Positions 19,382 to 56,994 are shown, counted from the stretch's first letter. The stretch: 64,000 nt of DNA from Gammaproteobacteria bacterium (GCA_024279495.1 JAJRRL010000003.1:2323-66322); one strand, 5' to 3'. Numbers and translations are program-made. The notes: generated by a model from the sequence alone, not told the origin.

Positions 19382-19422
19382 TTCGCTTTTGTTGGCGCCC
19401 CGGGGATGTAGCGAGCCCACAC

Positions 19423-19502: not shown

Positions 19503-19511
19503 CCAATTTTA

Positions 19512-19560: not shown

Positions 19561-19563
19561 ATC

Positions 19564-19643
19564 TTGAAAGATCGCTAGTTGTTACCTTGTAACAACGGAT
19601 CAAGCCTGGGTCCTCGACGTCACTTCGTTCCTGAGGATGACAA
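19564..19643 (-). repeat. MITE-like repeat family B copy 1 (~80 bp, inverted orientation)
   Basis: Reverse complement of cttgtcatcctcaggaacgaagtgacgtcgaggacccaggcttgatccgttgttacaaggtaacaactagcgatctttcaa. Confidence 0.8.
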
Positions 19644-29005: not shown

Positions 29006-29491
29006 ATGCCTTCATTTGATGTTGTATCTGCGCCTGACTGGCACGAAATTAGTAATGCGGTGGATCAAGCAAACCGAGAAGTAACGACACGTTTTGATTT
29101 TAAAGGAACTAATTCGTCGTTTGAATTAAAAGAAAAAGAAGTCGCCATGACAACAGAAGCCGACTTTCAGCTTAAGCAGATGCTCGATATGTTTCGCGGT
29201 AAGCTCGTGAAGCGAGGGGTGGATTTGGGTTTTCTAGAAGAAGATGAGCCAACGCTGCATCATAAAAAGGCAACGCAAAATTTGCGCTTTAAAGATGGTT
29301 TATCCACAGAGACCGCAAAAAAGATCACGAAAGGGCTCAAAGCCATGAAGTTTAAAGTCCAAGCGCAAATTCAAGGTGAGCAAGTTCGTGTCACTGGCAA
29401 GAAGCGAGATGACTTGCAGGTGGTGATTACGTACCTTAAAGAGAATGAAGATGAGTACGCGCCCATGGAATACACCAACTTCCGCGATTAA
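29006..29491 (+). CDS. yajQ: YajQ family nucleotide-binding protein (UPF0234)
   Basis: MPSFDVVS...RFDFKG and the two-domain YajQ pattern. 161 aa. Confidence 0.8.
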   Translation: MPSFDVVSAPDWHEISNAVDQANREVTTRFDFKGTNSSFELKEKEVAMTTEADFQLKQMLDMFRGKLVKRGVDLGFLEEDEPTLHHKKATQNLRFKDGLSTETAKKITKGLKAMKFKVQAQIQGEQVRVTGKKRDDLQVVITYLKENEDEYAPMEYTNFRD

Positions 29492-29497
29492 AAACCG

Positions 29498-29536
29498 CAT
29501 CTTTGGGCATCTTCAGTGTCGATCTTGCGCTTCCGG
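29498..29536 (+). repeat. Direct repeat family E copy 1 (39 bp)
   Basis: gcatctttgggcatcttcagtgtcgatcttgcgcttccgg is repeated exactly at 29618-29657. Confidence 0.85.
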
Positions 29537-29617: not shown

Positions 29618-29657
29618 GCATCTTTGGGCATCTTCAGTGTCGATCTTGCGCTTCCGG
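29618..29657 (+). repeat. Direct repeat family E copy 2
   Basis: Identical to 29498-29536. Confidence 0.85.
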
Positions 29658-29678
29658 AAGATTAAATAGCCCCAACCA

Positions 29679-29758
29679 CTTGTCATCCTCAGGAATGAAA
29701 TGACGTCGAGGACCCAGGCTTGATCCGTTGTTACAACGTAACAACTAGGATCTTTCAA
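29679..29758 (+). repeat. MITE-like repeat family B copy 3
   Basis: cttgtcatcctcaggaatgaaatgacgtcgaggacccaggcttgatccgttgttacaacgtaacaactaggatctttcaa. Confidence 0.85.
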
Positions 29759-29760
29759 GA

Positions 29761-29806
29761 TTCAGCCCTAACCCTACCGTGAGCTTAACTCTGCAGACTG
29801 CTTTTA
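29761..29806 (+). repeat. Repeat family C copy 4
   Basis: ttcagccctaaccctaccgtgagcttaactctgcagactgc. Confidence 0.7.
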
Positions 29807-29823
29807 GAAATTAAAGTTTATAT

Positions 29824-29900
29824 AGATCCTTAGTTCATGCTTCGCACGAACTGGATCGAAGCTAGGCCCCCGACGTCACTGCGTTGCCTTTGGGTGACAG
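29824..29900 (-). repeat. MITE-like repeat family A copy 4 (inverted)
   Basis: agatccttagttcatgcttcgcacgaactggatcgaagctaggcccccgacgtcactgcgttgcctttgggtgacag. Confidence 0.8.
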
Positions 29901-29924
29901 AAAAGGGGTCATTTCCCAACGAAG

Positions 29925-29946
29925 TAACAACTAGGATCTTTCAAGA
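29925..29946 (+). repeat. Partial family B 3'-end fragment that overlaps the stop codon of the gene at 29941..30975
   Basis: gtaacaactaggatctttcaagat. Confidence 0.6.
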
Positions 29947-30975
29947 TGTAAGCTTAACGACCTTATGCTCCACACCCTTATCATTTCTTTTTTGAATGCA
30001 GCGGCATAGATAGGCAATGCATTTTTTGAAGAATTCCGTGATACGAAGACAGAGTGCGGTGAAGCTACAGCGGGGGGTGTCGGCAAAAGCAGGGGCGGCA
30101 TTAATTAGAATATTGACCTTAAGTTTGTCTTGCGCAAATTTTTTGCACCAATCAAGGTCAGATTGATCGGGTTCGGTAGCTGATGTATCAGCCTCTTCAT
30201 CTGCTAAAGAGCAAGCTTGAATTCGCTTAATAAAGTATGTGCTAATACTTGGTGTGGAGTCTGTTTGCTCAAGATTTATTATGGCAGCTGCTTTTCTGTG
30301 TATGGCGCTAATACTCAAGCTGCTATCTAAGGCAAGAGTTTCCTTCTTGTTTTTATACATGATTAGCAAGTTCATTTGACCTTTTGCATTTTGATACTCC
30401 AGAGCAAGGCAAGCGTGCTCGTCTTGCCCGAACTGTATGACGTACAGCATAGCCTGCTCATTATGATTGAATCTGAGCATTGAGTTGAGCTTGGCTTTAG
30501 ATTTGTGAGGTAGTGAGCGACGGCTGGATTTGTTTATGTTCGCAGAAAAATCAGGATCCCCATTAAAAGAGATGTGCCGTTTGAACATCTCCTTAGCAAA
30601 CTGCTGGCACCATTGATAATCAGTTTGATTGTCAGAGGTCGGAGGTGTGTCGGCGGTTTTTTGTTTGGATAAAGAGGTGATCAGCGAATGCTGAATGACA
30701 TATGATTGAACTGAGGCCAAACGGTCGGTGGGCCTGAAAGCTAAGATTGCAATGGCTTTGGAGAAGATATCATTGCGATATTGCTTATCATGTAGGGTAA
30801 GCTCGGTGGCAGCTCTATAAATAAAGAGTATGGCGGCCTGTTGTTTGATGGTTTTATGCTCAATAGCAAGGCAGGCTCGCTGGTCTTCTTTGAAATCAAG
30901 CACATGTAGGAGAGCGTTCTCTTGATTGAAAGAGAAGCAGCTATCAAGTTTGCTCGTTATTTCTTGCTTTGCCAT
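29941..30975 (-). CDS. Hypothetical protein (344 aa) built from two tandem ~150-aa repeats, with a Cys-rich C-terminal tail
   Basis: Repeat 1 (..ENALLHVLDFKEDQRACLAIEH..DYQWCQQFAKE) against repeat 2 (..EQAMLYVIQFGQDEHACLALEY..DLDWCKKFAQD). Confidence 0.55.
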   Translation of the reverse strand: MAKQEITSKLDSCFSFNQENALLHVLDFKEDQRACLAIEHKTIKQQAAILFIYRAATELTLHDKQYRNDIFSKAIAILAFRPTDRLASVQSYVIQHSLITSLSKQKTADTPPTSDNQTDYQWCQQFAKEMFKRHISFNGDPDFSANINKSSRRSLPHKSKAKLNSMLRFNHNEQAMLYVIQFGQDEHACLALEYQNAKGQMNLLIMYKNKKETLALDSSLSISAIHRKAAAIINLEQTDSTPSISTYFIKRIQACSLADEEADTSATEPDQSDLDWCKKFAQDKLKVNILINAAPAFADTPRCSFTALCLRITEFFKKCIAYLCRCIQKRNDKGVEHKVVKLTS

Positions 30976-31362
30976 GCTGTCGTTTATTCCTAGGTGGATG
31001 ATAGGTTAAATATTAACCATTTTAGAGGTCGGAGTCAATCGAGAAGAAGCTTTTATGGTGCTAGCATGTCTTAGTGGTTGGGACGATCAATTCTGCTCAT
31101 TCAGCCCAACAAAAAAACAATCAGATTATCTCTCACAAGCCCCAGGCTGATCTCCGATACGGCCTTTTAGAGCTGTCTGATCTGGACTGGCGTTATCACC
31201 TAAAGACTGACGTATTTAAGAACAAAAGTTGATTAAATATAGAGCCGGGAAGAATAGTAGGCAATTTTTGCTTAAAAATCAACGACTAGCGTCACATAAG
31301 TTCCAAAAACAGACCATATTTAAAGCAGTTCTAGCGTTTTTTTTTATCGAAAATGAGGAAAA

Positions 31363-31399
31363 GTGGGTTATCAAGTGGTATAATGTGGGTAGATGTGGA
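31363..31399 (+). promoter_or_regulatory. Candidate mraZ promoter with an MraZ-type operator: four GTGG(G) direct repeats at ~10-bp spacing around a TATAAT box
   Basis: GTGGGttatcaaGTGGtataatGTGGGtagatGTGGA, with TATAAT at 31378-31383. Confidence 0.45.
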
Positions 31400-31408
31400 G
31401 GGATCGAC

Positions 31409-31870
31409 ATGTTTAGAGGACTTACAGCTATCACCGTTGATGCGAAGGGGCGCTTGGCGATCCCAACTCGTTATCGCGCCTCGATTGAGGAAGAAGCGAA
31501 AGGTCGTCTAGTGGCAACAATCAACACCATGGATTCGTGTTTGTTGCTATACACTTTACAGGAGTGGGAAGCCATCGAAGAGAAGCTCTCTCAGTTATCT
31601 AGTTTTCATCCAGCAACGCGCCGTATTCAGCGTCTGCTCATTGGTCATGCAACCGACATGGACATGGATCGCAGTGGTCGAATTTTGTTGCCAGCACTGC
31701 TTCGTGACTATGCTCAGATTGATTCTCAAGTGATGCTTGTAGGACAAGGTAATAAATTTGAATTGTGGGCTGAAGAAAGATGGCGTGAAGCATGCCACGA
31801 ATGGCTCGATGACGATGGCTCTGATGAAGATGGCAACCTCCCGTCAGAATTAGCGGGGCTTTCACTATGA
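31409..31870 (+). CDS. mraZ: Transcriptional regulator MraZ
   Basis: It starts MFRGLTAITVDAKGRLAIPTRYR and has two SpoVT/AbrB-like repeats. RBS GGAG. The ORF-track extension to 31229 is rejected. Confidence 0.9.
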   Translation: MFRGLTAITVDAKGRLAIPTRYRASIEEEAKGRLVATINTMDSCLLLYTLQEWEAIEEKLSQLSSFHPATRRIQRLLIGHATDMDMDRSGRILLPALLRDYAQIDSQVMLVGQGNKFELWAEERWREACHEWLDDDGSDEDGNLPSELAGLSL

Positions 31871-32820
31871 CAGAAAAATATACTCATCAAGCCGTTTTGT
31901 TGCAAGAAGCTATTGATGCTTTAGCTATTCATCCAGCGGGTGTTTATCTCGATGGTACTCTTGGTCGAGGCGGGCATAGCCGTTTAATTTTAGAGCATTT
32001 GGGCCAAGATGGTCGCTTAATTGCTTTTGATCAAGATCCTGTGTTGGCAGATGCTGATCAGCGTCCAGCAGAACTTGCTGAGATGTTTGCTGATCCACGC
32101 TTTGAATTTGTGTCAGCGAATTTTGTCTCTCTCCAAGCGGAGTTAGAAAAGCGAGACTTGCTTGGGCGAATCAATGGCATTTTATTAGACATTGGGGTGT
32201 CATCACCACAGATTGATGATCCCGCACGAGGTTTCAGTTCTGACCATGATGGTCCACTGGACATGCGTATGGATACGCGACAAGGAAGCCCAGCCTCTGA
32301 GTGGCTGGCGTCAGTGGATGAGTCGACCTTAGCGCGAGTGATTAAGCGTTACGGTGAACATCCTAGAGCACGAACGATTGCACAGGCTATTTTGCGTGAG
32401 CAATCGTTTGAGCCTATTACTACCACACGCGAATTGCGTGATGTGATTTTGAAGTCAGTCGGGCCGTCTCCTTCAGGAAAGTCACCTGTTGGTCAGGTCT
32501 TTCAAGCCATTCGGATTGAAATCAACCGAGAGTTGCAGGTGTTGGAAGAGACCTTGCCGCAATGTGCAGCAGCGCTGACAGCTGGTGGTCGTTTGGCTGT
32601 GATTAGTTTTCATTCACTGGAAGACCGAGTCGTCAAAACATTTATCCAACGTGAATCAGCAGGCAACGACTGGGTTCCAGGCATGCCTGTACCAGAATAC
32701 AATCAACCAGCACGTTTTCGTCAGATCACTCGTTTATTACGTCCTAGTGCTGAAGCAATAGAAGCTAATCCGCGCGCTCGTAGTGCTAGGTTGCGTGTGG
32801 CAGAGAGGTTATCGTTATGA
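31867..32820 (+). CDS. rsmH: 16S rRNA (cytosine1402-N4)-methyltransferase
   Basis: HQAVLLQEAIDAL...DGTLGRGGHS...LLDIGVSSPQ. 317 aa. Confidence 0.9.
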   Translation: MTEKYTHQAVLLQEAIDALAIHPAGVYLDGTLGRGGHSRLILEHLGQDGRLIAFDQDPVLADADQRPAELAEMFADPRFEFVSANFVSLQAELEKRDLLGRINGILLDIGVSSPQIDDPARGFSSDHDGPLDMRMDTRQGSPASEWLASVDESTLARVIKRYGEHPRARTIAQAILREQSFEPITTTRELRDVILKSVGPSPSGKSPVGQVFQAIRIEINRELQVLEETLPQCAAALTAGGRLAVISFHSLEDRVVKTFIQRESAGNDWVPGMPVPEYNQPARFRQITRLLRPSAEAIEANPRARSARLRVAERLSL

Positions 32821-33152
32821 ACGCTATCGTACACGCATTTAAATCATCCATGACACAAGTTGCAGGTCGCGTTTGGGTATTGCCTCGTGCTTGGCAATTG
32901 CGCGGGATGATGTGTCTTGTCTCCCTAATCGTTTTATCAGCGCTTGCTTTAGTGTATATCAAAGACACCAATCGTTTGTTGCTTGCTGATACAGAAAGCG
33001 TACGAGTGTCTGTTGAAGCACAACGCTGGCAGCATGATGAACTGTTGGTTCAGCGAGGTCAGCTGCTGAGAGCCGATGTATTGGCGAGTAAAGCAAGAGC
33101 TCTTAACATGGACATGCCAAGTCATATTCAGTTTATTGAGGTGCTTAATTAG
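32817..33152 (+). CDS. ftsL: Cell division protein FtsL
   Basis: A small bitopic protein (one TM, then a coiled coil) in the canonical slot between rsmH and ftsI. Confidence 0.6.
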   Translation: MNAIVHAFKSSMTQVAGRVWVLPRAWQLRGMMCLVSLIVLSALALVYIKDTNRLLLADTESVRVSVEAQRWQHDELLVQRGQLLRADVLASKARALNMDMPSHIQFIEVLN

Positions 33153-33167: not shown

Positions 33168-34829
33168 ATGATGCCACGATTTTCTCAAAAGGCTCGAACA
33201 CGGTGTATGCATGGTTTGCTGATTGTGTTGTGCTTTTTAATCGTCGCTCGTCTTATCGATTTAATGATTGTTCAACGTGATTTTTTAGTGGCGCAAAGCA
33301 GAGCTCGTATTTTACGTAAGCTTCCCATGTCTGCTAGACGAGGCATTATTTATGATCGGAAACACAAAGCATTAGCTGTGAGTGCTCCTGTGAAAGCAGT
33401 GTGGGTTGATCCTACTGATTTTCCATTAAATAATAAAAATATAGCGAGACTCACGCAACCACTAGGTTTGTCTGAGTCTGCTATCAAAAAACGCATAGTA
33501 AAACACCGTTCTAGTGAGTTTGTTTATATCAAGCGAGGTGTTCTAGCGAAAGAAGCGAAAGCCATTCAAGCCTTGAATTTGCCGGGAGTGTATTTACGAA
33601 CAGAGTATCGTCGGTTTTACCCACAAGGTGAGTTGTTTTCACATTTGGTGGGCGTGACCAATGTGGATGAGCGTGGGCAAGAAGGCATAGAGTTAAGTTA
33701 CGACACATGGTTGCGAGGAATTAGTGGTAAAAAAACGGTGATTCGTGATCGCCTTGGTCGAGTGGTTTCTAACTTACGTGTGAATCGCAAACCCAAACAA
33801 GGTCATGACTTGCAGTTAAGTGTGGATACTAGCATTCAATACGCAGCTGCAGATGCTTTGAAAAAAGCGGTGAAAGAACACGATGCTGTTTCTGGTTCTG
33901 TGGTGGTGATCGACGCACAAAACGGTGACCTATTAGCAATGGTTAATTACCCAAGCTATGATCCAAATCAACGTCGTGGCGTGCCCATGTCGCATCGGCG
34001 TAACCGAGCAGTGACTGATTCTTTTGAGCCGGGCTCTACTATTAAACCATTCACCGTGGTAGGTGCTTTGGAAAGCGGTCGGTACAATAGTAAAAGTGTG
34101 ATTCATACATCGCCTGGCTGGATGCGTGTGGGTCGATTCACTATTCGTGACGAATTAAATTACGGTGATGTGACCTTACGACGCTTGCTTAAAAAATCCA
34201 GCAACATTGGTGCGGCTAAAATCATGTTGTCGTTAGATCCTCAAGCTTATTCTGAACAATTGAGTCAGTTTGGTTTTGGTGTGCGAACGCAAAGTGGCTT
34301 GCAAGGTGAAGTATCGGGTCGACTTATTCCACATACGCATTGGGCATCGAGTGAAGTTGCGACCATGGCTTACGGTTATGGTATGTCTATCACCACCTTG
34401 CAGTTGGCGCATGCGTATTCCATTTTAGCCAGTGGTGGAATGAATTATCCGGTGCGTGTTTTAAAGCAAGACAAGCCGCCAATAGGAGAGCGTGTTATTC
34501 CTGCTCGTATTGCGCATCAAGTGTCAGACATGTTGTTTGCTGTGGTTGAAAAGGGGGGCACAGGAAAACGTGCACGTGTGGCAGGTTATCGTGTGGCTGG
34601 AAAAACAGGTACGGCAAACATTGCCACGCCTTCGGGTTACGATAAAAAACGTGTGATCAGTTCCTTTGTGGGTTACGCGCCAGCTTCGAAGCCACGTTTT
34701 GTGGTGGCAGTTGTGATTCGCGAACCGCACAAAAGCCATTTTGGTGCTTTGGTCGCTGCGCCGGCGTTTGCAAAAATTATGGCGGCGGCTCTTCATTCAT
34801 GGGCTGTATTACCGGACTCTGTAGGCTGA
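33168..34829 (+). CDS. ftsI: Peptidoglycan D,D-transpeptidase FtsI (PBP3)
   Basis: N-terminal TM. SxxK (STIKP), SxN (SSN), KTG(T) (KTGTA). 553 aa. Confidence 0.9.
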   Translation: MMPRFSQKARTRCMHGLLIVLCFLIVARLIDLMIVQRDFLVAQSRARILRKLPMSARRGIIYDRKHKALAVSAPVKAVWVDPTDFPLNNKNIARLTQPLGLSESAIKKRIVKHRSSEFVYIKRGVLAKEAKAIQALNLPGVYLRTEYRRFYPQGELFSHLVGVTNVDERGQEGIELSYDTWLRGISGKKTVIRDRLGRVVSNLRVNRKPKQGHDLQLSVDTSIQYAAADALKKAVKEHDAVSGSVVVIDAQNGDLLAMVNYPSYDPNQRRGVPMSHRRNRAVTDSFEPGSTIKPFTVVGALESGRYNSKSVIHTSPGWMRVGRFTIRDELNYGDVTLRRLLKKSSNIGAAKIMLSLDPQAYSEQLSQFGFGVRTQSGLQGEVSGRLIPHTHWASSEVATMAYGYGMSITTLQLAHAYSILASGGMNYPVRVLKQDKPPIGERVIPARIAHQVSDMLFAVVEKGGTGKRARVAGYRVAGKTGTANIATPSGYDKKRVISSFVGYAPASKPRFVVAVVIREPHKSHFGALVAAPAFAKIMAAALHSWAVLPDSVG

Positions 34830-35022
34830 AACAGTCGCTTTTTCTCTCCTTCTTTGCTTGCACCGTTGAAAAACGGTGTCCAGCCCGGCTCTCCTCGAAA
34901 GAAGAAAGATTACTTTACTTTAGGAATCAATACCATACGATTTTTAATTATTAAGAACAAATAAAGCTTGCGCTTTCATCCAGTGATGCAGTATTATTAT
35001 TGCTCAACTTTAGGGGGGTGTT

Positions 35023-36726
35023 ATGAAAAGTGATTCTGAGAGAAAAAGTAGGCAAGACAATAGTTTAAGTAGCAGCAAGGGGCATTTCCTGCTTGTCTCG
35101 AAATCTGATGTTGATGGTATTGAGGATAAATTGCGTCCCTCTGATGTTCAGGTATATCATCCTGAGACTCATATAGCAGGGTTCTATGTAGAGTCAAAAT
35201 TGCGCCCCTCTGGAATTCCTTCGTTTCAACCGGCTGGATCTAAGACAGCAGGGATCTCGGCAACGGGACTTTTTTCAGGAGAGAACAAAAACACGCCCTT
35301 AAGCTTATTTAAGCCTCACTTGAATACAGGTTTTGTGATGAATCCTTATCGTGTTGAAGCAAGGCAAGGAGATTTTGCGGCTTCTTATTCAGGAGGCCTC
35401 ACTCTTAAAGAGAAGCTTAAAGAAGCTGTGGACGGAGAAAAGCATTGGTATCACTTGGCTGATGGGCAAATTACAATAGATGGAAAAACAAAGTATCCGG
35501 GCAAGCCTGTTTTCTTTCGAGTAATGCAGTATGCAGCTAATCAGATGAGAATCAGAAATGTCGAGAGGCATGATGGTGCTGATAAGCGTATTAAAACAAA
35601 AGTGTTTTATTCCAAGGGAAACATGGCTGCCTTTGGCCGTAGGCTTTGGGAAAGGGTTAATACGAAGAAAGAAAAATACGCAGATGGCAAGTGGGCCATG
35701 GAAAGCAAGCTTAGCTATAATGAAGTGATTTGCTTTAAAAGAGAAGGCGTAGAAAATCCGATTGCAGGTTTGGCGTGGTTTGGCAAGGATCCGGATCAGC
35801 CGAAGGATTCGGAATGGAAGGCACACGTCACTTCTGTGAAGAAGAGATACCTTCAGTTATTAAAAGACTACAAGCATTTGGAGCTGTATTTCTATGAAGT
35901 TAAAGCAAATAAAAACATTGTTAGAGTCATGGAAAATGACCAAGCCATAGCTTTTTTAGGATCTAAAAAAAGCATGGAAAGTGGCTTTAAAAAAGCGACC
36001 CCTTTTACGGGCTTTCCTGAGCAGCCACATTTATTGCCCAAGCATGTTGTTTCCTTAGTGGAATCTGCGGAAGACTACTTACTTGATCCTACAGACCAAG
36101 AACCAGATTTTGTCACGGCATTTCTTAATGCTTACTCTGAGAAATGTGAAGCTTACAATCAATTAACAGCCAAAGAGAGAACCGTTGGTTTTTTAGAGTT
36201 GGTGGATTTGTATTATTCGAATGACAGCAGCGTTGAGGTGGGTTTTCTGGGGGCATGTTTTTCGGTAATACTTCCTAATGAAAGCCAGGAAATGTATAGA
36301 GAGAGAGCCAAGGCTAAGTGCATAGAATCAGCTTCAGCTGAGCCTACGGGTGCTTTGCCTGATTCTGCGGGTGCTTTGCCTGATTCTGCAGTTTCTGATG
36401 CTGCTTTGCCTGCCGGCGGCGTAAAACAAGAAAAGAGCAAACCGGTCACAAGAAAACGAGATAGCATTGCTCTTATCGTTGGAGCTGTTGCAGGGTATGC
36501 TGCTACTTTAGGTGGTGGTGCGGCAGCTGGTCTTGTTCTCTTTAATATGGTGCCTATGATGACTTCTACCGCAGCCTGGGCGTTTGTTGGCTTAGCCGTT
36601 GTGGGTCTTGCGGCAGGTATTATCACCACGATGGCGTTGACAAAGAGAGCAAAATCACAGAGCCTGTTTGGAAGTGGTGAGTCTTCGGCTGGAAGCTCAA
36701 ACGACACTTCTTTCCAAAAACAATAA
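35023..36726 (+). CDS. Hypothetical protein (567 aa) with a C-terminal hydrophobic hairpin (two long TM segments). Candidate membrane-inserted effector.
   Basis: N-terminal KLRPS-containing duplicated segment. GALPDSA x2 encoded by a perfect 21-bp tandem repeat at 36349-36390. C-terminus IALIVGAVAGYAATLGGGAAAGLVLFNMVPMM...AWAFVGLAVVGLAAGIITTMAL. Confidence 0.55.
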   Translation: MKSDSERKSRQDNSLSSSKGHFLLVSKSDVDGIEDKLRPSDVQVYHPETHIAGFYVESKLRPSGIPSFQPAGSKTAGISATGLFSGENKNTPLSLFKPHLNTGFVMNPYRVEARQGDFAASYSGGLTLKEKLKEAVDGEKHWYHLADGQITIDGKTKYPGKPVFFRVMQYAANQMRIRNVERHDGADKRIKTKVFYSKGNMAAFGRRLWERVNTKKEKYADGKWAMESKLSYNEVICFKREGVENPIAGLAWFGKDPDQPKDSEWKAHVTSVKKRYLQLLKDYKHLELYFYEVKANKNIVRVMENDQAIAFLGSKKSMESGFKKATPFTGFPEQPHLLPKHVVSLVESAEDYLLDPTDQEPDFVTAFLNAYSEKCEAYNQLTAKERTVGFLELVDLYYSNDSSVEVGFLGACFSVILPNESQEMYRERAKAKCIESASAEPTGALPDSAGALPDSAVSDAALPAGGVKQEKSKPVTRKRDSIALIVGAVAGYAATLGGGAAAGLVLFNMVPMMTSTAAWAFVGLAVVGLAAGIITTMALTKRAKSQSLFGSGESSAGSSNDTSFQKQ

Positions 36727-36739
36727 AAAGGAGGCTAGG

Positions 36740-37105
36740 ATGGCATTACTTTGGGTGTTTCTAGGTTGTGGTATCGGAGGCATGCTTCGTTATTGGGTCT
36801 CTGTGTTGTTGCGCGCTCAAAGTTTTCCTTATGCAACGCTTATTGTGAATGTCAGCGGCTCTTTTCTCATCGGCTTATTGGCTTCGCTCTTTCTTGCTCG
36901 ATGGAATCACTTAAGCTTTTTAAAGCCTTTATTACTGGTTGGTTTTTTGGGCGGCTACACGACCTTTTCATCGTTTTCACTAGAAACCTGGCGCTTGCTA
37001 GAATCAGGCAATCACTTAGGCGCCATCTGCAACATTGCGCTTAGCCTGATACTTTGCCTGTTTGCCGTCTGGCTAGGCTTGTGCTTGGGTCGTCAGATCG
37101 CGTAA
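36740..37105 (+). CDS. crcB: Fluoride ion channel CrcB/Fluc
   Basis: GIGGMLRY and GFLGGYTTFSSF motifs with 4 TM. A perfect RBS AAAAAGGAGG. 121 aa. Confidence 0.8.
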   Translation: MALLWVFLGCGIGGMLRYWVSVLLRAQSFPYATLIVNVSGSFLIGLLASLFLARWNHLSFLKPLLLVGFLGGYTTFSSFSLETWRLLESGNHLGAICNIALSLILCLFAVWLGLCLGRQIA

Positions 37106-37115
37106 GGCTAAGTCT
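37071..37115 (+). repeat. crcB 3'-end segment, copy 1 of a triplicated ~40-bp direct repeat
   Basis: ggcttgtgcttgggtcgtcagatcgcgtaaggctaag, with related copies at 37391-37434 and 39040-39083. Confidence 0.65.
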
Positions 37116-37164
37116 TTTATATCAGCAATCCCCATTTTTGGCCAAAATAGAAGAGCCCCAGCCT

Positions 37165-37244
37165 CTTGTCATTCCCAGGAACGTAGTGACGTAGGGAACC
37201 CAGGCTTGATCCGTTGTACGAAGGACAACTAGGATCTTTCAAAA
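37165..37244 (+). repeat. MITE-like repeat family B copy 4 (diverged)
   Basis: cttgtcattcccaggaacgtagtgacgtagggaacccaggcttgatccgttgtacgaaggacaactaggatctttcaaaat. Confidence 0.75.
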
Positions 37245-37266
37245 TTTGGCTTCAATCCTATTAGAC

Positions 37267-37312
37267 GAAAACTCTCTTCAAAATGCTCATATACTCGCAT
37301 GTACGCTTCGCT
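37267..37312 (+). repeat. Repeat family D copy 2
   Basis: gaaaactctcttcaaaatgctcatatactcgcatgtacgcttcgc. It is flanked by the inverted repeat gacgaaaa..ttttcgtc. Confidence 0.4.
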
Positions 37313-37390
37313 TTTTCATTGACTTTTCGTCTAACCTTGCCTCAAATCTGGGAATTTGATGTAGACTATAAATTTCGTTTATGCATTTTA

Positions 37391-45608: not shown

Positions 45609-47018
45609 TTAAAAAGAAGCGATAACATCAATATCACAAAAAGGAAGGGTTTTCCCTTGAATGATTTGCCCTTGTTCGCAGCCCTTTCCTGCAACGAGTA
45701 CGGTATCGTTGGTTTGTGCGATTGATAATGCGTGTTCGATCGCTTTTTTTCTATCGAGAATGATAAGTGGTTTTTGGAGTAAGTCTTTGCAAATAGCATC
45801 GGCGATGTCTTGCGGGGACTCATCACGAGGATTGTCGTTGGTGATTATGACTGTGTTTGCCAATTCAGAAGCAATGTTTCCCATGATCGCTCGTTTTCTT
45901 TTATCGCGGTTTCCGCCGCAACCAAAGACACAGATTAGTTTTCCTTCGGTAGATTTTTTCAACGTACTTAAGGCTTTTTCTAAAGCATCAGGAGTGTGAG
46001 CATAATCCACAATCGCGCGAATATTTTTTTGGTTTGATACCGTTTGCATTCGTCCGGGAACAGCTTTGAGTTCAGGGAGTGTTTTTTCAATGGTTTTTAA
46101 ATCGACGCCTAAGCTTCCAAGTACAGCCACCACAGCCAAGACATTACTTGTATTGAATTCTCCAATTAAGGAGTGACTCATGATTAATTCACCCCATGGC
46201 GTTTGAATGACATTGTTTTCTTTTAAGTGAATAGCAGGAACAGGGATGAGTGCGTTGGGGTCTGTTGAGTAAGCTAAGCATGTTTCCTTGATGGCATTTG
46301 ATTCTATCCAAGATCGACCAACAGCGTCATCCCAATTAATCACAGCTGTTTCTAAGCTAGGTTGTTCCCAGAGTTTGGCTTTGGCTTTTGCATACTCTTC
46401 CATGGTTTCATGATAATCCAAATGATCGTGCGAGAGATTAGTGAAAACACCGATTGGCATGTGAATCGCGCTCACGCGTGATTGATCGAGAGCATGGGAG
46501 GAGATTTCCATGGCAACATGAGTAGCGCCAGATTTTTGGCAATCAAGCAATGCTTTAATGCAAGTAATAGGGTCTGGCGTTGTTAAGCCAGTGTGATTGA
46601 GCTTTGGTAATACCCCAACGCCTAAGGTACCCACAACGCCACAGAGATAGTCGCAAGCAGTTAGTGCTTGCGCGAGATAGTGGCTCACTGATGTTTTGCC
46701 GTTAGTGCCAGTGATACCAATGACCGTTAGCGATTCAGAGGGTTTGCCATAAAAGTCATGAGCTAGTTCGCTGATGTGTTGTTGTAAATTTGCTACAGCA
46801 AGGGCGGGGCATTGTGAGGGAAGGTTTTGTGTTAATTTTTCCGGATCATACAAAATAGCTGACGCACCGGCCTTTGAGGCTTGCCCCATGAAATCACGCC
46901 CATCGGAGTTTACGCCTGGGTAAGCTAAAAACACATCGCCAGGCGACATCTTTCTACTATCTAAGCATAGCCCTGTGAATGACACATTAGGAAGACGTTT
47001 GGAAAGTAGGCTGCTCAT
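45609..47018 (-). CDS. murE: UDP-N-acetylmuramoyl-L-alanyl-D-glutamate--2,6-diaminopimelate ligase. It is inverted relative to the rest of the dcw cluster.
   Basis: GITGTNGKTS P-loop. DNPR motif (meso-DAP specificity). VFGCGGNRD. Start ATG at 47018 with AAGGAG RBS. Confidence 0.9.
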   Translation of the reverse strand: MSSLLSKRLPNVSFTGLCLDSRKMSPGDVFLAYPGVNSDGRDFMGQASKAGASAILYDPEKLTQNLPSQCPALAVANLQQHISELAHDFYGKPSESLTVIGITGTNGKTSVSHYLAQALTACDYLCGVVGTLGVGVLPKLNHTGLTTPDPITCIKALLDCQKSGATHVAMEISSHALDQSRVSAIHMPIGVFTNLSHDHLDYHETMEEYAKAKAKLWEQPSLETAVINWDDAVGRSWIESNAIKETCLAYSTDPNALIPVPAIHLKENNVIQTPWGELIMSHSLIGEFNTSNVLAVVAVLGSLGVDLKTIEKTLPELKAVPGRMQTVSNQKNIRAIVDYAHTPDALEKALSTLKKSTEGKLICVFGCGGNRDKRKRAIMGNIASELANTVIITNDNPRDESPQDIADAICKDLLQKPLIILDRKKAIEHALSIAQTNDTVLVAGKGCEQGQIIQGKTLPFCDIDVIASF

Positions 47019-47220
47019 GGAGACTCCTTGGTTTGCTACGATAGGAATTGCCTTGATTTTAGCAGCACATTGAGGCAAGCATCCAGTCAAGGTTAGTCAT
47101 TTTTCAGCGCTATTTTTTTATTGCATAAAGAGATTTTCTGTTGATGGACTCATGTGGTTTCAAGCTGATCAGTATGCTACTCTTCAGCCCTGCTAACTAT
47201 ATATAAAGTAGAGGAATATC

Positions 47221-48570
47221 ATGAAATCATCACTAGCTGCTGTTGCTACTGCTTTGGGCTTGCCTTGGGGTGGAGAAGAGTGTGACTTCGAAAGGATTTG
47301 TATTGATTCACGTCACATTACGCCAGGGTGTTTGTTTATTGCTCTAAAAGGTGAGCAGTTTGATGGTCATGATTTTGTAAAAGAAGCCAGCAAGCAAGCC
47401 GCTGCTTGTTTAGTAAGCCAGAGCGTCGACTCATCTGCTCCACTTCTTGTAGTAAACGATACGCTTGAAGCCATGACCCAAATGGCTGCATGGTGGCGAA
47501 AAAAGTATACAGGACCTGTTCTAGCCATTACTGGCAGTTGTGGTAAAACCACCACTCGTTCCCTTTTATCGGCTCTAATGGCTAGCCAAGGCTCGGTTCA
47601 TGCAAGCATTAAAAGTCATAATAATCACATTGGTGTTCCGCTGACATTGCTCGGCATTCGCTCAGATCACGATAGCGTTGTGGCCGAAGTGGGTACTAGC
47701 GGGCCTGGTGAGATTGTAGCCTTAGCAGACATCATTCAGGCAACGATTGCGATTATTACACTTGCAGCTCCTGTTCATTTGGATGGTTTGGGTTCGCTAG
47801 CGGGTATTGTGGAAGAAAAAGGAGCTTTGGTTCGCTCACTCAAATCCGGTGGGGTGGCTATTTTAAATGCAGATGATCCTGCTTTTGAGCAATGGAAAGA
47901 GATGCTGCTTGAAGGTGTGCGTTTGGTTTCTTTTGGAGCTCAAAGCTCTGCTGATATTACTGTGACTAAATGGAAGTCGTTACCAAATGCTCGTTCTCGA
48001 GCGCGTTTGTCAGTGATGGGCGAGACAGTTGATATTGAAGTCCCCATGGTTGGTGAGCATCATGCCACAAATGTGGCGGCTGCTTGTGCGGCTGCTTATG
48101 CGGCAGGAGTGCCTATGTCAGCGATGCCAGAGGCTTTGGCTTCTGCTGTTTTGCCGCCAAATCGTTTGGTTCCGAAAAGTGGTTTTAATGGCGCTTATTT
48201 AATTGATGATACTTACAACGCAAATCCTCTGGCTGTGTCGGCAGCCATTAAGGTTCTGATGAGCTCTCCTCAAGCAAAAAAAGTACTGGTATTAGGTGAT
48301 ATGGGTGAGTTGGGTGATCAAGTAGAGAGTTTGCATGCATCTGTTGGCTTAGAAGCGCGAGACCTGGGGGTTGATCGATTGTTTGCTTATGGCGAAGCAA
48401 TGAAGCATGCGGTTGCAGCTTTCGGCGATGGCGCTCAACACTTTGAGACAAAGCAGTCGCTCTTAGAGGCTTTGCATGAGATAATGGATGCAGATACGGT
48501 AGTGCTTATCAAAGGCTCCCGTTTTATGCGCATGGAAGAAATCACACAAGGCTGTGTTGATCTGACGTAA
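47221..48570 (+). CDS. murF: UDP-N-acetylmuramoyl-tripeptide--D-alanyl-D-alanine ligase
   Basis: ITGSCGKTTT, DDTYNANP. 449 aa. Confidence 0.9.
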   Translation: MKSSLAAVATALGLPWGGEECDFERICIDSRHITPGCLFIALKGEQFDGHDFVKEASKQAAACLVSQSVDSSAPLLVVNDTLEAMTQMAAWWRKKYTGPVLAITGSCGKTTTRSLLSALMASQGSVHASIKSHNNHIGVPLTLLGIRSDHDSVVAEVGTSGPGEIVALADIIQATIAIITLAAPVHLDGLGSLAGIVEEKGALVRSLKSGGVAILNADDPAFEQWKEMLLEGVRLVSFGAQSSADITVTKWKSLPNARSRARLSVMGETVDIEVPMVGEHHATNVAAACAAAYAAGVPMSAMPEALASAVLPPNRLVPKSGFNGAYLIDDTYNANPLAVSAAIKVLMSSPQAKKVLVLGDMGELGDQVESLHASVGLEARDLGVDRLFAYGEAMKHAVAAFGDGAQHFETKQSLLEALHEIMDADTVVLIKGSRFMRMEEITQGCVDLT

Positions 48571-48585
48571 CAGGGAGAGTAAGTA

Positions 48586-49632
48586 ATGGTAACGATGTGG
48601 TTGGGAATGCACAGTGTTTTGTTTTGTCTGCTTGCTTTGCTAGTGTCTTTGGCATTGAGTTTGTGTTTAGGTAGGCCTTACATTCGGCAGTTGCAAAAAG
48701 CACAATTTAAGCAGGTTATTCGAAAAGAAGGTCCAGAATCACACCTTAAAAAACAAGGCACCCCAACCATGGGTGGTGGCCTTATTGTCGCTGTAGCTAC
48801 TATTACCACCTTACTTTTTTCAAATTGGCATAGCCTGTATGTGTGGCTGATCTTAGGAGTGTTAGTAGCAACAGCAGTATTGGGTTGGTTTGATGATTAT
48901 CAAAAAGTGACTAAGGCTAATACAAAAGGATTGTCAGGGAAGGCGAAGTTGTTTTGGCAGATCATGATAGCCGCGATTGCTTTGTTGATTGCTTACCGAT
49001 TTGCGCCATCACCAGCTTATACAGCGCTTAGCATTCCATTTATCAAATCATGCACAATAGCACTTGGTGGTTGGTTTGTGGTGCTTGGTGTGCTTGTGAT
49101 TGTCGGAACCAGCAACGCAGTCAACTTAACCGATGGCTTGGATGGCTTGGTCTCCATGCCGATTGTGCTGGTTCTTTTGGGTTTATTGGTGTGTTCCTCC
49201 TTGATGGGGAGCCAGGGATTAAGTGCTTTTTTTCACCTGCAGTACATGCCATCTTTGGCTGACATTAGCATTGTGATTTGTTCGCTGATTGGCGCTGTGC
49301 TTGGGTTTTTGTGGTTTAACGTGCACCCAGCTGAGATGTTCATGGGAGACCTGGGTTCTCTCAGTCTTGGCGCTGTTATCGGGATGATGGCCATGATGCT
49401 TCGGGAAGAATTATTACTGGTGATAATAGGAGGGCTTTTTGTTGCAGAAGCTTTATCGGTGATTATCCAGGTAGCTTCTTTTCGTTGCAGGCAAGGCAAG
49501 CGAGTCTTTAAAATGGCACCGTTTCACCATCACTTTGAACTTTCTGGCTGGGCTGAGTCGCGGGTTGTCATGCGCTTTTGGTGGGTCAGTTTACTGTTGT
49601 TATTAATCGGTATGACCAGTTTGTTTGTGTAG
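48586..49632 (+). CDS. mraY: Phospho-N-acetylmuramoyl-pentapeptide transferase
   Basis: KQGTPTMGG, NAVNLTDGLDGL and 10 TM. 348 aa. Confidence 0.9.
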   Translation: MVTMWLGMHSVLFCLLALLVSLALSLCLGRPYIRQLQKAQFKQVIRKEGPESHLKKQGTPTMGGGLIVAVATITTLLFSNWHSLYVWLILGVLVATAVLGWFDDYQKVTKANTKGLSGKAKLFWQIMIAAIALLIAYRFAPSPAYTALSIPFIKSCTIALGGWFVVLGVLVIVGTSNAVNLTDGLDGLVSMPIVLVLLGLLVCSSLMGSQGLSAFFHLQYMPSLADISIVICSLIGAVLGFLWFNVHPAEMFMGDLGSLSLGAVIGMMAMMLREELLLVIIGGLFVAEALSVIIQVASFRCRQGKRVFKMAPFHHHFELSGWAESRVVMRFWWVSLLLLLIGMTSLFV

Positions 49633-49647
49633 TTTGAGGAGGCGTCA

Positions 49648-50979
49648 GTGGGTCGTAGTATTCCTGGATACGATGAAGTCAAAACGGTATTGGTGATCGG
49701 CCTAGGAAAGACAGGTCATTCCTTTCTTCGTTATTTGTCACGCTACGACGTTCAGGTATACATCACAGACACGCGTCTTTCTAAAGAAGACATAGCGGAT
49801 CGCTTGGATGCTTCTGTGCAAGCGTTTGTTTGGGATGAAAACGAAACACCTCTATCAGAGATTGATTTAGTGGCAGCTAGCCCGGGTGTTCCCATGCATG
49901 ATTCCTTGATTCAGCGTATCGACTCTTTAGGTATATCTGTTTGCAGTGACGTTGCTTTTTTTAGTCAAGCCATACAGTCCCCGATGATTGCTATCACTGG
50001 AACGAATGGCAAAACAACAGTCACTACCTTAGTCACACGTTTGCTGAAAGAGGCAGGGTTATCAGCGATAGCTTGCGGTAATATTGGCCTTCCTGTTTTA
50101 GAGTTGTTAGAGGAAGACGCCCTAGAGTCGGCGCCAGATTTTTATGTGTGTGAATTATCTAGCGCACAGTTGGCGCGTTCACCAGAATTGAATGCTAAAG
50201 TGGCTGTGTGTTTAAACATCACCGATAATCATCTCGATTGGCATGGCTCAGCTGCTCATTACGCGCAATCAAAAAAGCACATTTATGATGGCTGCTCTTT
50301 AGCGGTTGTGCCAAAAGGAGAGGTGGTTGATGCATCTGCGACGCTTTCTTTTTCATCGAAAACGGATGCTGATGTGTGTGTGAGAGATGGGTATTATTGC
50401 ATTCAAGGAGAGCCTTTGCTGCCGGTAGAGTCAACCTCATTGCGTGCAGCCCACGAGCAGGCCAATGTCTGTGCTGCATTGGCCTGTGTGGTCGGCTGTG
50501 GTGTGGATGTTAAGCAAGTGGTTTCAGCGCTTCAATCATTCACGGCTTTGCCGCATCGATGTCAAAAATTAGGAATGCATCAAGGTGTTTTGTGGATTAA
50601 CGATTCTAAAGCAACCAGTGTTGTTGCAGCTTGTGCTGGTATGGCTGTTGCAGGAGAAGGTCTTTCGGGAAAAGTGATTCTAATCATGGGAGGCCTGTCT
50701 AAGGGTGCCGATTTACATCCTTTGGTAGATCCTATTTCACGTCTTGCCAAGCATGTGTTGCTGATGGGGAAAGACGCTCATCGTTTTGAAGAAGTGCTTT
50801 TGGCAGTCGTTGACTTAACGCGTGTGTCTAGTATGGAAGAAGCAGTTAGCCTGGCGGCTCAGCTGGCCAAGAGAGGGGATGCTGTTTTACTTGCGACAGC
50901 ATGTGATAGTCGAGACATGTTCACCAACTACGAAGAGCGAGGGGAAATCTTTTGCGACTTGGTGGCTAAGTTACATTAG
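49648..50979 (+). CDS. murD: UDP-N-acetylmuramoylalanine--D-glutamate ligase
   Basis: GTG start with GAGGAGG RBS. ITGTNGKTT. 443 aa. Confidence 0.9.
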   Translation: MGRSIPGYDEVKTVLVIGLGKTGHSFLRYLSRYDVQVYITDTRLSKEDIADRLDASVQAFVWDENETPLSEIDLVAASPGVPMHDSLIQRIDSLGISVCSDVAFFSQAIQSPMIAITGTNGKTTVTTLVTRLLKEAGLSAIACGNIGLPVLELLEEDALESAPDFYVCELSSAQLARSPELNAKVAVCLNITDNHLDWHGSAAHYAQSKKHIYDGCSLAVVPKGEVVDASATLSFSSKTDADVCVRDGYYCIQGEPLLPVESTSLRAAHEQANVCAALACVVGCGVDVKQVVSALQSFTALPHRCQKLGMHQGVLWINDSKATSVVAACAGMAVAGEGLSGKVILIMGGLSKGADLHPLVDPISRLAKHVLLMGKDAHRFEEVLLAVVDLTRVSSMEEAVSLAAQLAKRGDAVLLATACDSRDMFTNYEERGEIFCDLVAKLH

Positions 50980-50990
50980 GAAGAGGGCGG

Positions 50991-52166
50991 ATGATACAAG
51001 CTGTACGAAGAGATAGGTTGCAACCTGACAATCAAGAGAGTTCTTTTTTAAAAGACCAATGGCTCATGTTGTCGGTTGGTCTTTTGTTGGTGTTAGGTTT
51101 TGTGATGGTTGCTTCGGCATCGATGATTATTTCCGATCGTGTATTCCATGACCCTTTTCATTACATGATTCGCCAGGGTGTGTATTTGCTTATTAGTGTG
51201 TTGGCAATGTGGGGAGTGACTCGTATCCCATTGTTATTGTGGCAGCGTTTTAGTATCGCTTTATTATTGGTAAGTGTTGTGTTGCTGATTGCTGTCTTGA
51301 TTCCAGGTATTGGGCATGTGGTGAATGGTAGCCGACGCTGGATACATCTACCTTTTATGTCAATTCAGTTGTCGGAGTTTGTGAAATTATCGGTTGTTGT
51401 TTTTTTAGCAGATTACGCAACGCGAAAAGCGCAAGCACTTCGAACTGACCTGGTTTGCTTTTTAAAGCCATTGCTTTTTGTTGGCGTACTTATATTTTTA
51501 CTGTTGCTTGAGCCTGATTTTGGAACGTCCAGTATTTTGATTGCGATCACTTTGTCTGTTTTATTTATCGCCGAAGCACCTCTTAAACCTTTCTTATTGC
51601 TGGTTGCTTGTGTTGCAGTTGTGTTTGCGGCATTAGCGATATTGAGTCCTTATCGTCTGGCTCGTCTTTTGTCGTTTTTGCATCCATGGAAAACACCGTA
51701 TGGTTCGGGTTATCAACTGACGCAGTCTCTGATTGCCTTTGGGCGTGGAGGTGTGTTTGGTGTGGGTTTAGGCAATGGTTTGCAAAAACTACTGTACCTA
51801 CCAGAAGCGCATACAGATTTTTTATATGCGGTGATTGGTGAAGAGTTTGGTCTCACAGGCAGTTTAGTTGTTTTATTATTGTTTGGTACTTTTATTGCTC
51901 GTGCGTGTTGGTGGGGGCGGGAAGCTTTACGTCAGTCTCAGTCGTTTGCAGGTTTGATTGCTTACGGGATAGCTTTCTGGATTGCCTATCAGGTAGCCAT
52001 CAACTGCGGTGTGACCTTAGGTCTTTTTCCAACGAAAGGTTTGACTTTGCCATTTATGAGTTATGGAGGCAGTAGTTTGTTGGTATGTTGTCTGGGCGCT
52101 GGACTTTTATTACGCGTTACTGCTGAAGTGGGATCTTATTCGCGAGGACTTGATTATGGTCGCTAA
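50991..52166 (+). CDS. ftsW: Peptidoglycan glycosyltransferase / lipid II flippase FtsW
   Basis: SEDS family. 10 TM. Conserved position between murD and murG. Confidence 0.85.
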   Translation: MIQAVRRDRLQPDNQESSFLKDQWLMLSVGLLLVLGFVMVASASMIISDRVFHDPFHYMIRQGVYLLISVLAMWGVTRIPLLLWQRFSIALLLVSVVLLIAVLIPGIGHVVNGSRRWIHLPFMSIQLSEFVKLSVVVFLADYATRKAQALRTDLVCFLKPLLFVGVLIFLLLLEPDFGTSSILIAITLSVLFIAEAPLKPFLLLVACVAVVFAALAILSPYRLARLLSFLHPWKTPYGSGYQLTQSLIAFGRGGVFGVGLGNGLQKLLYLPEAHTDFLYAVIGEEFGLTGSLVVLLLFGTFIARACWWGREALRQSQSFAGLIAYGIAFWIAYQVAINCGVTLGLFPTKGLTLPFMSYGGSSLLVCCLGAGLLLRVTAEVGSYSRGLDYGR

Positions 52167-53241: not shown

Positions 53242-53242
53242 T

Positions 53243-54700: not shown

Positions 54701-54767
54701 GTTTCAAATAAGCCAACACCAGTATTCGCTCTCTTAGAAAACTGCTAAACTTGGTAGAGAAGGGGGG

Positions 54768-55574: not shown

Positions 55575-55744
55575 GTTTTTTTGAAACCACCTATAGGGAA
55601 GGTTTTGAAAAAACAGATAATAACGTCAGCTCTATGGTGCATTTCTCGCTAGTGTTAGATGATTGATTAACCTATAATAGGCACACCGAAGCTCAATGAC
55701 TTGAGCGGTTTTTGCGCATATTGTTGACAGGGAGATACCCCCAA

Positions 55745-56971: not shown

Positions 56972-56994
56972 CGACTGATAGCAAGGAGATCCGT

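Follow-up and report, generated by a model that had tools for sequence, protein, structure and literature searches.

In a 64,000-nt stretch of DNA from a Gammaproteobacteria bacterium (GCA_024279495.1, JAJRRL010000003.1:2323-66322), hereafter referred to as the window, the division and cell wall (dcw) cluster is broken between ftsI and murE, and murE alone among the genes of the cluster lies on the minus strand. Both the separation of ftsI from murE and the inversion of murE are real and are confirmed here. The explanation that we favor, with a probability of roughly 80%, is that murE was inverted once, in place and long ago, at a site that has been used recurrently for the insertion of other genes, and that the resulting arrangement has been inherited with a fused lysC-lysA gene (lysCA) as its stable resident. 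The window encodes a complete dcw gene set at one locus (mraZ, rsmH, ftsL, ftsI, murE, murF, mraY, murD, ftsW, murG, murC, ftsQ, ftsA and ftsZ), and Pfam and NCBIfam scans place all of these genes other than murE in their canonical order on the plus strand. A canonical cluster lies on a single strand and runs from ftsI directly into murE; here murE alone is on the minus strand, and 10,779 nt separate the end of ftsI from the 3' end of murE, a gap in which open reading frame (ORF) listing and family scans recognize seven genes. On its other side, murE is divergent from murF across an intergenic region of 202 nt (47019-47220), much as had been claimed (~200 bp) in an earlier reading of the sequence alone, which we refer to as the original prediction. 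The gene identities and strands proposed there (ftsI on the plus strand, murE on the minus strand and the list of intervening, or cargo, genes) were all borne out by the domain and family scans, and its claim that DNA has been inserted at the ftsI/murE junction is supported.

The inverted murE retains all three Mur ligase domains (PF01225, PF08245 and PF02875), an intact P-loop (GITGTNGKT, at residue 101) and an intact DNPR motif (at residue 395), the latter being the mark of MurE specificity for meso-diaminopimelate (meso-DAP). Its start codon, the ATG at 47018, has a Shine-Dalgarno sequence (AAGGAG) ahead of it, and by these sequence features the gene looks functional. Its predicted product is identical to the database protein P0001 (469 aa), although an exact-sequence look-up of it gave no record.

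The MurE, FtsI and LysC-LysA proteins of the window each match a single NCBI record, all on the same 140,422-nt contig, and the next-best matches are considerably more distant: P0002 for MurE (57% identity), P0123 and P0124 for FtsI (70-71%), and P0243 and P0244 for LysC-LysA (70%). The remaining protein matches fall below ~55% and, for FtsI, include Coxiella burnetii, Candidatus Paracoxiella cheracis and metagenome-assembled genomes of the Coxiellaceae; the window FtsI is 53-54% identical to the C. burnetii and Paracoxiella proteins. Protein and genome/metagenome searches found no closer relative of the window organism than a group of three contigs, L081, L082 and L087, which we call clade B and to which the window is 55-57% identical in MurE (55-56% for L087), 57-58% in MurF, 70-72% in FtsI (L082 and L087) and 70% in LysC-LysA (L081, L082 and L087). 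On L087 (Logan assembly SRR28113954, 25 kb), mraZ-rsmH-ftsL-ftsI, lysCA on the plus strand, a set of variable genes, murE on the minus strand, murF on the plus strand and mraY are all present on one contig, and the five genes between lysCA and murE encode a 179-aa protein, an AbiEii protein, a 244-aa protein (minus strand), an 801-aa protein and a major facilitator superfamily (MFS) protein (minus strand). On L081 (ENA ERZ27247931, 113.6 kb, recovered in four samples), murE is divergent from murF-mraY-murD-ftsW-murG-murC-ftsQ-ftsA-ftsZ, and lysCA is found ~7 kb beyond murE, on the murE-distal side. The L082 contig carries ftsI, a minus-strand gene for a 441-aa protein with faint ankyrin similarity, a gene for an AAA ATPase, lysCA on the plus strand, four minus-strand genes and a minus-strand MFS gene, at which point the contig ends. 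The only cargo gene common to the window and clade B is lysCA, whose L081 and L082 copies are 90% identical to one another. The scaffold ftsI...lysCA(+)...murE(-)|murF(+), whole on L087 and in part on L081 and L082, is thus older than the split between the window lineage and clade B. The original prediction had treated the inserted DNA as an island, a view that the synteny comparison divides: the scaffold of ftsI, lysCA, inverted murE and murF is shared with relatives and is thus an ancient feature, and only the remaining cargo is variable.

The canonical order is the ancestral one, since on three other Coxiellales contigs (L088, L089 and L090) ftsI, murE and murF all point the same way, and ftsI lies 327, 96 and 460 nt, respectively, from murE. 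Elsewhere in the order the same junction has been interrupted. In C. burnetii, ~2 kb separate ftsI from murE and contain a minus-strand gene for a 458-aa protein together with small ORFs, including one of 92 aa that encodes a hydrophobic hairpin; in Paracoxiella the gap is occupied by an MFS gene and a gene for a 195-aa protein; and on L171, from a metagenome-assembled genome, a minus-strand gene begins right after ftsI. This last gene, which is partial, was considered as another possible inverted murE and was rejected, as it is not murE. The inserts of C. burnetii, Paracoxiella and L171 differ from each other, which argues that the ftsI-murE junction has been hit repeatedly and independently within the Coxiellales.

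The rarity of the arrangement was gauged against a background of 160 MurE-centred loci from diverse bacteria, drawn from genome and metagenome collections, 120 of which also carry murF. In 119 of these 120, murF follows murE in the same orientation, directly adjacent in 115 and slightly further away in four; the one remaining locus, from the Thermotogae, has murF ~5.4 kb upstream of murE on the other strand. A divergent murE|murF pair was seen in none (0/120), which marks the rearrangement as very rare, in keeping with the claim of the original prediction that it is unusual, and ftsI, where present in the background loci, is always upstream of murE on the same strand. A scan of the genome collection with the window MurE retrieved distant bacteria only (no more than 45% identity) and no clade member, and a metagenome scan with an alignment of the clade MurE proteins retrieved no additional clade members (best match 45%). 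In the literature, the dcw gene order is counted with the most stable known in bacteria and is put on the level of the ribosomal clusters (PMC8871954; PMC10214165), and one reconstruction of the ancestral cluster disallowed gene inversions altogether (PMC8871954). The MurE-MurF order, and even the fusion of these two genes, has been discussed as a reflection of the assembly of a Mur ligase complex (PMC10214165).

Nucleotide composition speaks to the age of the inversion. Third codon positions are rich in G along the whole plus strand. On the coding strand, the GC skew at third codon positions (GC3 skew) ranges from +0.11 to +0.46 for the plus-strand genes, ftsZ excepted, and from -0.15 to -0.60 for the long-resident minus-strand genes. 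With values of -0.380 and -0.376, respectively, murE and the adjacent gene for a 392-aa protein fall within the minus-strand range and are therefore fully equilibrated to that strand. The inverted murE genes of L087 (-0.362) and L081 (-0.298) are similarly skewed, and the co-directional murE genes of L088 (+0.14) and L090 (+0.17) resemble their neighbors. Had murE been inverted recently, or been assembled in the wrong orientation, its skew would have the opposite sign; the value observed argues that the inversion is both old and authentic. The cargo genes look native in composition: their GC content (0.417-0.483) and GC3 (0.359-0.441) lie within the range of the dcw core rather than deviating from it, as those of a genomic island might, and the sign of their skew follows their strand. 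As a separate observation, ftsZ (56995-58152) is the sole plus-strand gene among those tested to have a negative GC3 skew (-0.128), perhaps because, as a highly expressed gene, it is under codon selection.

Neighbor-joining (NJ) trees with bootstraps were constructed for MurE, MurF and FtsI, with five Coxiellales sequences included; an NJ tree of MraY, in which the clade was misplaced on a long branch, was left out. The window and clade B are monophyletic in all three trees, with 100% bootstrap support, and are sister to the five Coxiellales with support of 100% for FtsI and 44% for both MurE and MurF. Identities between the window and C. burnetii are 45% for MurE, 44% for MurF and 35% for MurD. 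An inversion of the resident murE in place is favored over the acquisition of a foreign one because the identity of MurE is in line with that of MurF and MurD and because MurE has the same placement, with the same support, as MurF in the NJ trees.

Three other accounts of the window have to be weighed against this one. The mechanism put forward in the original prediction was that of a recent accessory island, with horizontally acquired or effector cargo, that entered this genome at the ftsI-murE junction, murE then undergoing a local inversion. As that prediction had suggested, effector-like and mobile-type genes are present in the cargo, which includes ankyrin, Fic and hairpin-membrane proteins; there are two copies of a repeat resembling a miniature inverted-repeat transposable element (MITE) in the interval; and, lysCA apart, no tested cargo gene has a counterpart in clade B, as judged by homology for L081 and L082 and by the gene list for L087. 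An event of recent date is nevertheless hard to reconcile with an inverted murE and a lysCA that are common to relatives with MurE proteins merely 55-57% identical, with a GC3 skew that is equilibrated to the strand in murE and in every tested cargo gene (crcB was not among these), or with a cargo GC and GC3 that are those of the dcw core. Nor are the usual accompaniments of an island in evidence: no tRNA gene was found in the window, no integrase or transposase domain was found among the cargo in Pfam and NCBIfam scans, and the 10.8 kb are not enclosed as a whole by direct repeats, the only flanking repeats being internal 38-nt duplications around the ankyrin gene and a MITE-containing segment. 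We consider a recent island unlikely; as an account of the scaffold it is largely refuted, with no support left for the proposed genome-specific mechanism, and it survives only for individual genes such as those for the ankyrin, Fic, GlnII, 567-aa and 392-aa proteins. The xenologous replacement of murE, in which the native gene was lost and a foreign one inserted in reverse beside murF, draws some encouragement from the fact that outside its own clade MurE is no more than 45-49% identical to any database protein, and from the betaproteobacterial origin of some of its named top matches (Methylotenera, Burkholderiales and Thiobacter). MurF behaves alike, however, with 41-43% identity to the closest Coxiellales and ~41% to Methylotenera; the MurE and MurF trees both place the clade as sister to the Coxiellales with equal bootstrap values; and the divergence of MurE from C. 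burnetii is of a piece with that of MurF and MurD, all of which makes a replacement very improbable. The possibility to which we give the least credence is that of an assembly artefact, i.e., a contig that is chimeric or mis-oriented around murE. It is prompted by the metagenomic derivation of the contig, by self matches (P0001 and P0122) that are single NCBI records, and by the MITE repeats near one junction, and it is countered by the recurrence of both junction types in assemblies made independently from different samples (L087 whole on one contig, L081 in four samples), by a murE GC3 skew that fits long residence on the minus strand, and by the lack of any repeat at 34830-35022 or 47019-47220.

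Several observations weigh against the single ancient inversion that we favor, or against parts of it. The inverted murE was seen in just two deep lineages and thus counts as a single evolutionary event. The contigs of clade B are incomplete at the critical places, in that L082 stops before murE and ftsI is not reached on L081, and the window itself is part of a metagenome-derived contig of 140 kb. The support for a sister relationship to the Coxiellales is merely 44% for MurE and MurF, which formally leaves room for a joint replacement of both genes. No inverted repeats or MITE remnants that might represent the scar of an inversion flank murE in either the window or L087, beyond short matches attributable to chance or paralogy. 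The background loci were picked by peptide-pattern matching, such that the set is neither random nor rich in Gammaproteobacteria. With regard to expression, a consensus promoter scan found no site matching at least 9 of 12 positions in 47019-47220, promoter-like sites in the region are no commoner than in shuffled sequence, and no convincing terminator was found after ftsI or GlnII, where there are weak terminator-like hairpins only. Finally, a functional link between lysCA and murE draws solely on their conserved neighborhood and on textbook knowledge of the pathway.

The consequences of the arrangement for transcription can be read in part from strand alone. Transcripts from the mraZ promoter cannot express murE, which is on the other strand, and the original prediction was right to call it uncoupled from that promoter. 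The same account overlooked that murF through ftsZ are equally severed, being separated from the mraZ promoter by 12 kb that include an antisense murE. With both murE and the murF-to-ftsZ genes cut off in this way, transcription of both would have to start within 47019-47220. Candidate sites in this region are an extended -10 sequence for murE on the minus strand (TGCTAAAAT, 47064 to 47056) and a -10-like TATATAAA box located ~15 nt upstream of the murF ATG; by alignment, the box next to murF is the only block of 47019-47220 that is conserved with L081 and L087. In L087, TTGACA-18-CATTAT is found ahead of murE. These elements are putative promoter sequences. The 392-aa gene lies 18 nt downstream of murE on the minus strand, and the two are probably co-transcribed.

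In Table 1, we have listed the features of the locus from mraZ through ftsZ, including the cargo genes and the repeats between ftsI and murE. The mraZ-rsmH-ftsL order of the 5' part of the cluster (31229-33152) is the same as that found in L082, L084, L085 and L087.

Table 1. Genes, repeats and candidate regulatory elements of the split dcw locus, in window coordinates
Feature	Position	Strand	Evidence and remarks
mraZ	ORF 31229-31870	+	Pfam MraZ; domain begins at ORF residue 61
rsmH	31867-32820	+	Pfam Methyltransf_5
ftsL	32817-33152	+	Pfam FtsL, weak (21.5 bits vs cutoff 22.9); position right
ftsI (PBP3)	33168-34829	+	PBP_dimer and Transpeptidase domains; last gene of the upstream dcw half
567-aa protein	35023-36726	+	No Pfam/NCBIfam match; Gly/Ala-rich hydrophobic hairpin at C-terminus, ~aa 482-541 (hydropathy scan)
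crcB, fluoride channel	36751-37105, ORF open from 36668	+	PF02537, 96 bits; TIGR00494, 95 vs cutoff 80
38-nt module, copy 1	37073-37110	+	True crcB 3' end; encodes ...LGLCLGRQIA, then stop
MITE-like copy	37134-37290	+	Between crcB and the ankyrin gene; blastn 69.6-84.5% to copies at ~7.0, 19.6, 26.2 and 29.7 kb
38-nt module, copy 2	37392-37429	+	32 nt upstream of the ankyrin gene; TTGTCT-18-TAGAAT
524-aa ankyrin-repeat protein	37461-39035	+	Ank_2, Ank_4, Ank; variable cargo
38-nt module, copy 3	39043-39080	+	Directly upstream of lysC-lysA; TTGTGC-18-TAGAAT
lysC-lysA fusion	39088-41646	+	NF006515, 1073.1 bits vs cutoff 802, model positions 5-857 of 861
Two tandem 29-nt palindromes (ATAATCGCTTCATATTATGAAGCGATTAG)	41842-41903		Overlap the start of the Fic ORF
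Fic/DUF4172 protein	41879-43036	+	HPFEDGNGR motif intact; variable cargo
GlnII-type (type II) glutamine synthetase	43151-44194	+	NF041605, 465.8 bits, just under cutoff 500; variable cargo
MITE-like copy	44238-44395		Exactly at the convergent GlnII (+) / 392-aa (-) junction
392-aa protein	44412-45590	-	No Pfam match; HAD-like DVDET motif at N-terminus; hydrophobic hairpin at C-terminus, ~aa 305-366
murE (meso-DAP-adding UDP-MurNAc-tripeptide synthetase)	45609-47018	-	TIGR01085, 492.5 bits vs cutoff 257.3
murF	47221-48570	+	TIGR01143, 415.6 bits
murF, mraY, murD, ftsW, murG, murC, ftsQ, ftsA, ftsZ	47221-58152	+	Downstream dcw half, canonical order

The one cargo gene with a place in the inherited scaffold, lysCA, encodes a single polypeptide with AA_kinase, ACT and Orn/DAP decarboxylase domains, a bifunctional aspartate kinase/diaminopimelate decarboxylase, with the ATG at 39106 as its probable start codon. 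The activities of LysC and LysA start the diaminopimelate pathway and consume meso-DAP, which is the substrate of MurE, and a functional link between lysCA and the neighboring murE may be envisaged on these grounds. The other cargo genes of the window (those for the 567-aa, CrcB, ankyrin, Fic, GlnII and 392-aa proteins) lack blastp homologues among the cargo genes of L081 and L082, and no matching size or Pfam family was found for them in the L087 gene list. The 567-aa protein is part of this variable cargo and, from its C-terminal hairpin, is a candidate membrane-inserted effector; the ankyrin and Fic proteins may also be effectors. The ankyrin protein weakly resembles the Ank effectors of Legionella, with scores far under the cutoffs of those models, and has no blastp match to the 441-aa faint-ankyrin protein at the equivalent place on L082. 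The 392-aa protein was considered as a diverged form of the L087-type MFS protein and rejected, as it has the C-terminal hairpin only and no blastp match, whereas about nine hydrophobic segments are predicted for the MFS homologue on L081; an AlphaFold2 model of it, made with no alignment, has a mean pLDDT of 45 and is too poor to use. The two hairpin proteins (567 and 392 aa) show no significant homology to each other. The tandem palindromes, which are of perfect type and overlap the Fic start, look like an operator, and the sole matches in an Rfam scan of 30-49 kb were spurious, sub-threshold microRNA models on these palindromes; no fluoride riboswitch was found ahead of crcB in the same scan. 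In clade B, the slot that follows lysCA (6529-7946 on L087 and 17188-18604 on L081) is occupied by the gene for the 179-aa protein and then the AbiEii gene, which are probably a toxin-antitoxin or abortive-infection pair; the corresponding slot of the window holds the Fic and GlnII genes.

Repeats are found both within the interval and outside of it. Members of the MITE-like family, in either orientation, are located at six intergenic sites of the window (7020-7590, 19416-19933, 26063-26320, 29637-29960, 37134-37290 and 44238-44395), with pairwise identities that are mostly 70-88%, some short segments being higher, and with internal palindromes such as TGTCACCCCCAGGAACGAAGTGACGTCGGGGGCC. The family is short, non-coding and multicopy and has internal inverted repeats, as is characteristic of MITEs. 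Four MITE copies had earlier been counted between ftsI and murE, a number that has to be revised, as just two sites in the interval match this family. The remaining repeats of the interval belong to a 38-nt module that derives from the crcB 3' end and occurs three times, as against 0.00 matches expected in shuffled sequence. The ftsI-distal intergenic region and the MITE-like copy at the convergent junction (44238-44395) were folded as RNA, with non-significant z values of -0.3 to -0.8; for the MITE-like copy, shuffled sequence did not have a significantly higher folding energy. The third copy of the 38-nt module is likely to be the lysCA promoter, judging from its promoter-like sequence; at the same position, the regions upstream of the clade B lysCA genes have TTGTCA-17-TAAAAT. 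Copies of the module are found on either side of the MITE-containing segment (37111-37391), and likewise on either side of the ankyrin gene. It would appear from this configuration that crcB formerly abutted lysCA, with a lysCA promoter that overlapped the end of crcB, and that the MITE-containing segment and the ankyrin gene may have been inserted later, each duplicating the module.

Our preferred reading, a single inversion in place, suggests the following history. The window belongs to an uncultured lineage, sister to the Coxiellales sampled, in which the dcw cluster has long existed as two units, one consisting of mraZ-rsmH-ftsL-ftsI followed by co-directional genes that do not belong to the cluster, and the other running from murF through ftsZ. 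Between these units, murE lies on the opposite strand and diverges from murF via a short, shared intergenic region, having been inverted once, in place, in the common ancestor of the window organism and the L081/L087 clade. The gap between ftsI and murE would then be a long-lived plasticity zone around a resident lysC-lysA, with a turnover of accessory genes that presumably brought the ankyrin, Fic, GlnII, crcB and hairpin-protein genes to the window and AbiEii, AAA ATPase, MFS and other genes to its relatives. This turnover may have been associated with the MITE-like repeats and with duplication of the 38-nt module that joins the crcB 3' end to a promoter-like sequence.

Comparison with known dcw clusters places the window in perspective. 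The E. coli-type cluster (mraZ-rsmH-ftsL-ftsI-murE-murF-mraY-murD-ftsW-murG-murC-ddlB-ftsQ-ftsA-ftsZ) has the same genes as the window with the exception of ddlB; the window differs from it in having murE on the opposite strand, 10.8 kb of non-dcw genes and no ddl between murC and ftsQ; lpxC and secA come after ftsZ in the window, as they do in E. coli. In C. burnetii and Candidatus Paracoxiella cheracis, ftsI and murE are likewise interrupted, by ~2 kb of lineage-specific genes, and metNIQ and yajQ are shared with the window upstream of the cluster. These two differ from the window in that their murE is co-directional with ftsI and murF and in that their inserts are small and lack lysC-lysA. 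C. burnetii has a second dcw gap of ~2 kb, between mraY and murD (L084, 17538-19565), where the called ORFs are all tiny (39 and 53 aa). The MurE-MurF fusion of Betaproteobacteria such as Bordetella represents the opposite extreme for the same gene pair, which in the window is on opposite strands; in the Methylotenera loci L001, L002 and L039, murE and murF are fused in a single ORF of 929 aa. Strict dcw order has been lost in bacteria that are not rod-shaped (PMC10214165). The window differs from those rearrangements in the inversion of a single internal gene in place, with the order otherwise intact and with the arrangement kept across deep relatives.

The 92-aa ORF of C. burnetii, which lies just upstream of murE, encodes a hydrophobic hairpin followed by an EEEE block, and its location fits the locus-tag order of CBU0122, which we take to be adjacent to murE. 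It also equals in size the 279-nt gene CBU0122 (CvpM), which encodes a Dot/Icm effector (PMC12754634; PMC13252051), so that the ORF fits an identification as CvpM. The C. burnetii ORF has no significant homology to the hairpin proteins of the window (BLASTP E values of 0.29 and 0.82) and is similar to them in architecture alone, i.e., in having a Gly/Ala-rich hydrophobic hairpin. No dot/icm genes were recognized among the scanned ORFs of the window.

Other parts of the window also depart from the organization of its relatives. Between metNIQ (16708-19187) and yajQ (29006-29491), three large ORFs of 814, 858 and 787 aa (20849-28955) have no significant Pfam match, and MITE copies are found between and beside them; in C. 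burnetii, Paracoxiella, L088, L090 and L171, the same slot contains an aminotransferase and an alcohol dehydrogenase. This segment looks like a second insertion zone. A perfect direct repeat of 40 nt, with a spacing of 121 nt, occurs just after yajQ (29497-29536 and 29618-29657), and a 53-nt direct repeat that is 94% identical, with a spacing of 142 nt, occurs just after metQ (19193-19245 and 19335-19387); each adjoins a MITE copy. A minus-strand ORF of 344 aa with no Pfam match (29941-30975) lies between yajQ and mraZ, where relatives have other small genes or nothing. Two further ORFs, of 1098 aa (836-4132, minus strand) and 480 aa (9172-10614, plus strand), have no Pfam domain at E <= 1e-5, and the share of orphan proteins in the window is high.

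A bolder interpretation, which we offer tentatively and hold to be rather doubtful, is that the ftsI-murE junction is a recurrent hot spot throughout the Coxiellales for genes of host interaction (CvpM, ankyrin, Fic and hairpin proteins, with others in Paracoxiella and L171), and that in the window lineage murE, with a promoter of its own, and lysC-lysA have been co-opted as a module for the supply and consumption of meso-DAP that is regulated apart from both halves of the dcw cluster. If this were true, the murE/lysC-lysA module would be separately regulated, e.g., in the course of a developmental or intracellular cycle. The practical weight of the finding is modest, as the organism is known from metagenomic contigs alone, and its regulatory consequences are at this point predictions. 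Among the gene orders of bacteria, that of the dcw cluster ranks with the two or three most conserved; it has been linked to the ordered assembly of the Mur ligases and to shared transcription driven by the mraZ promoter (PMC10214165; PMC8871954). The lineage described here amounts to a natural experiment in which the co-transcription of murE with its neighbors and the murE-murF reading order have both proved dispensable, and the ftsI-murE junction, as a soft spot in the Coxiellales, could guide the discovery of effectors in uncultured relatives.

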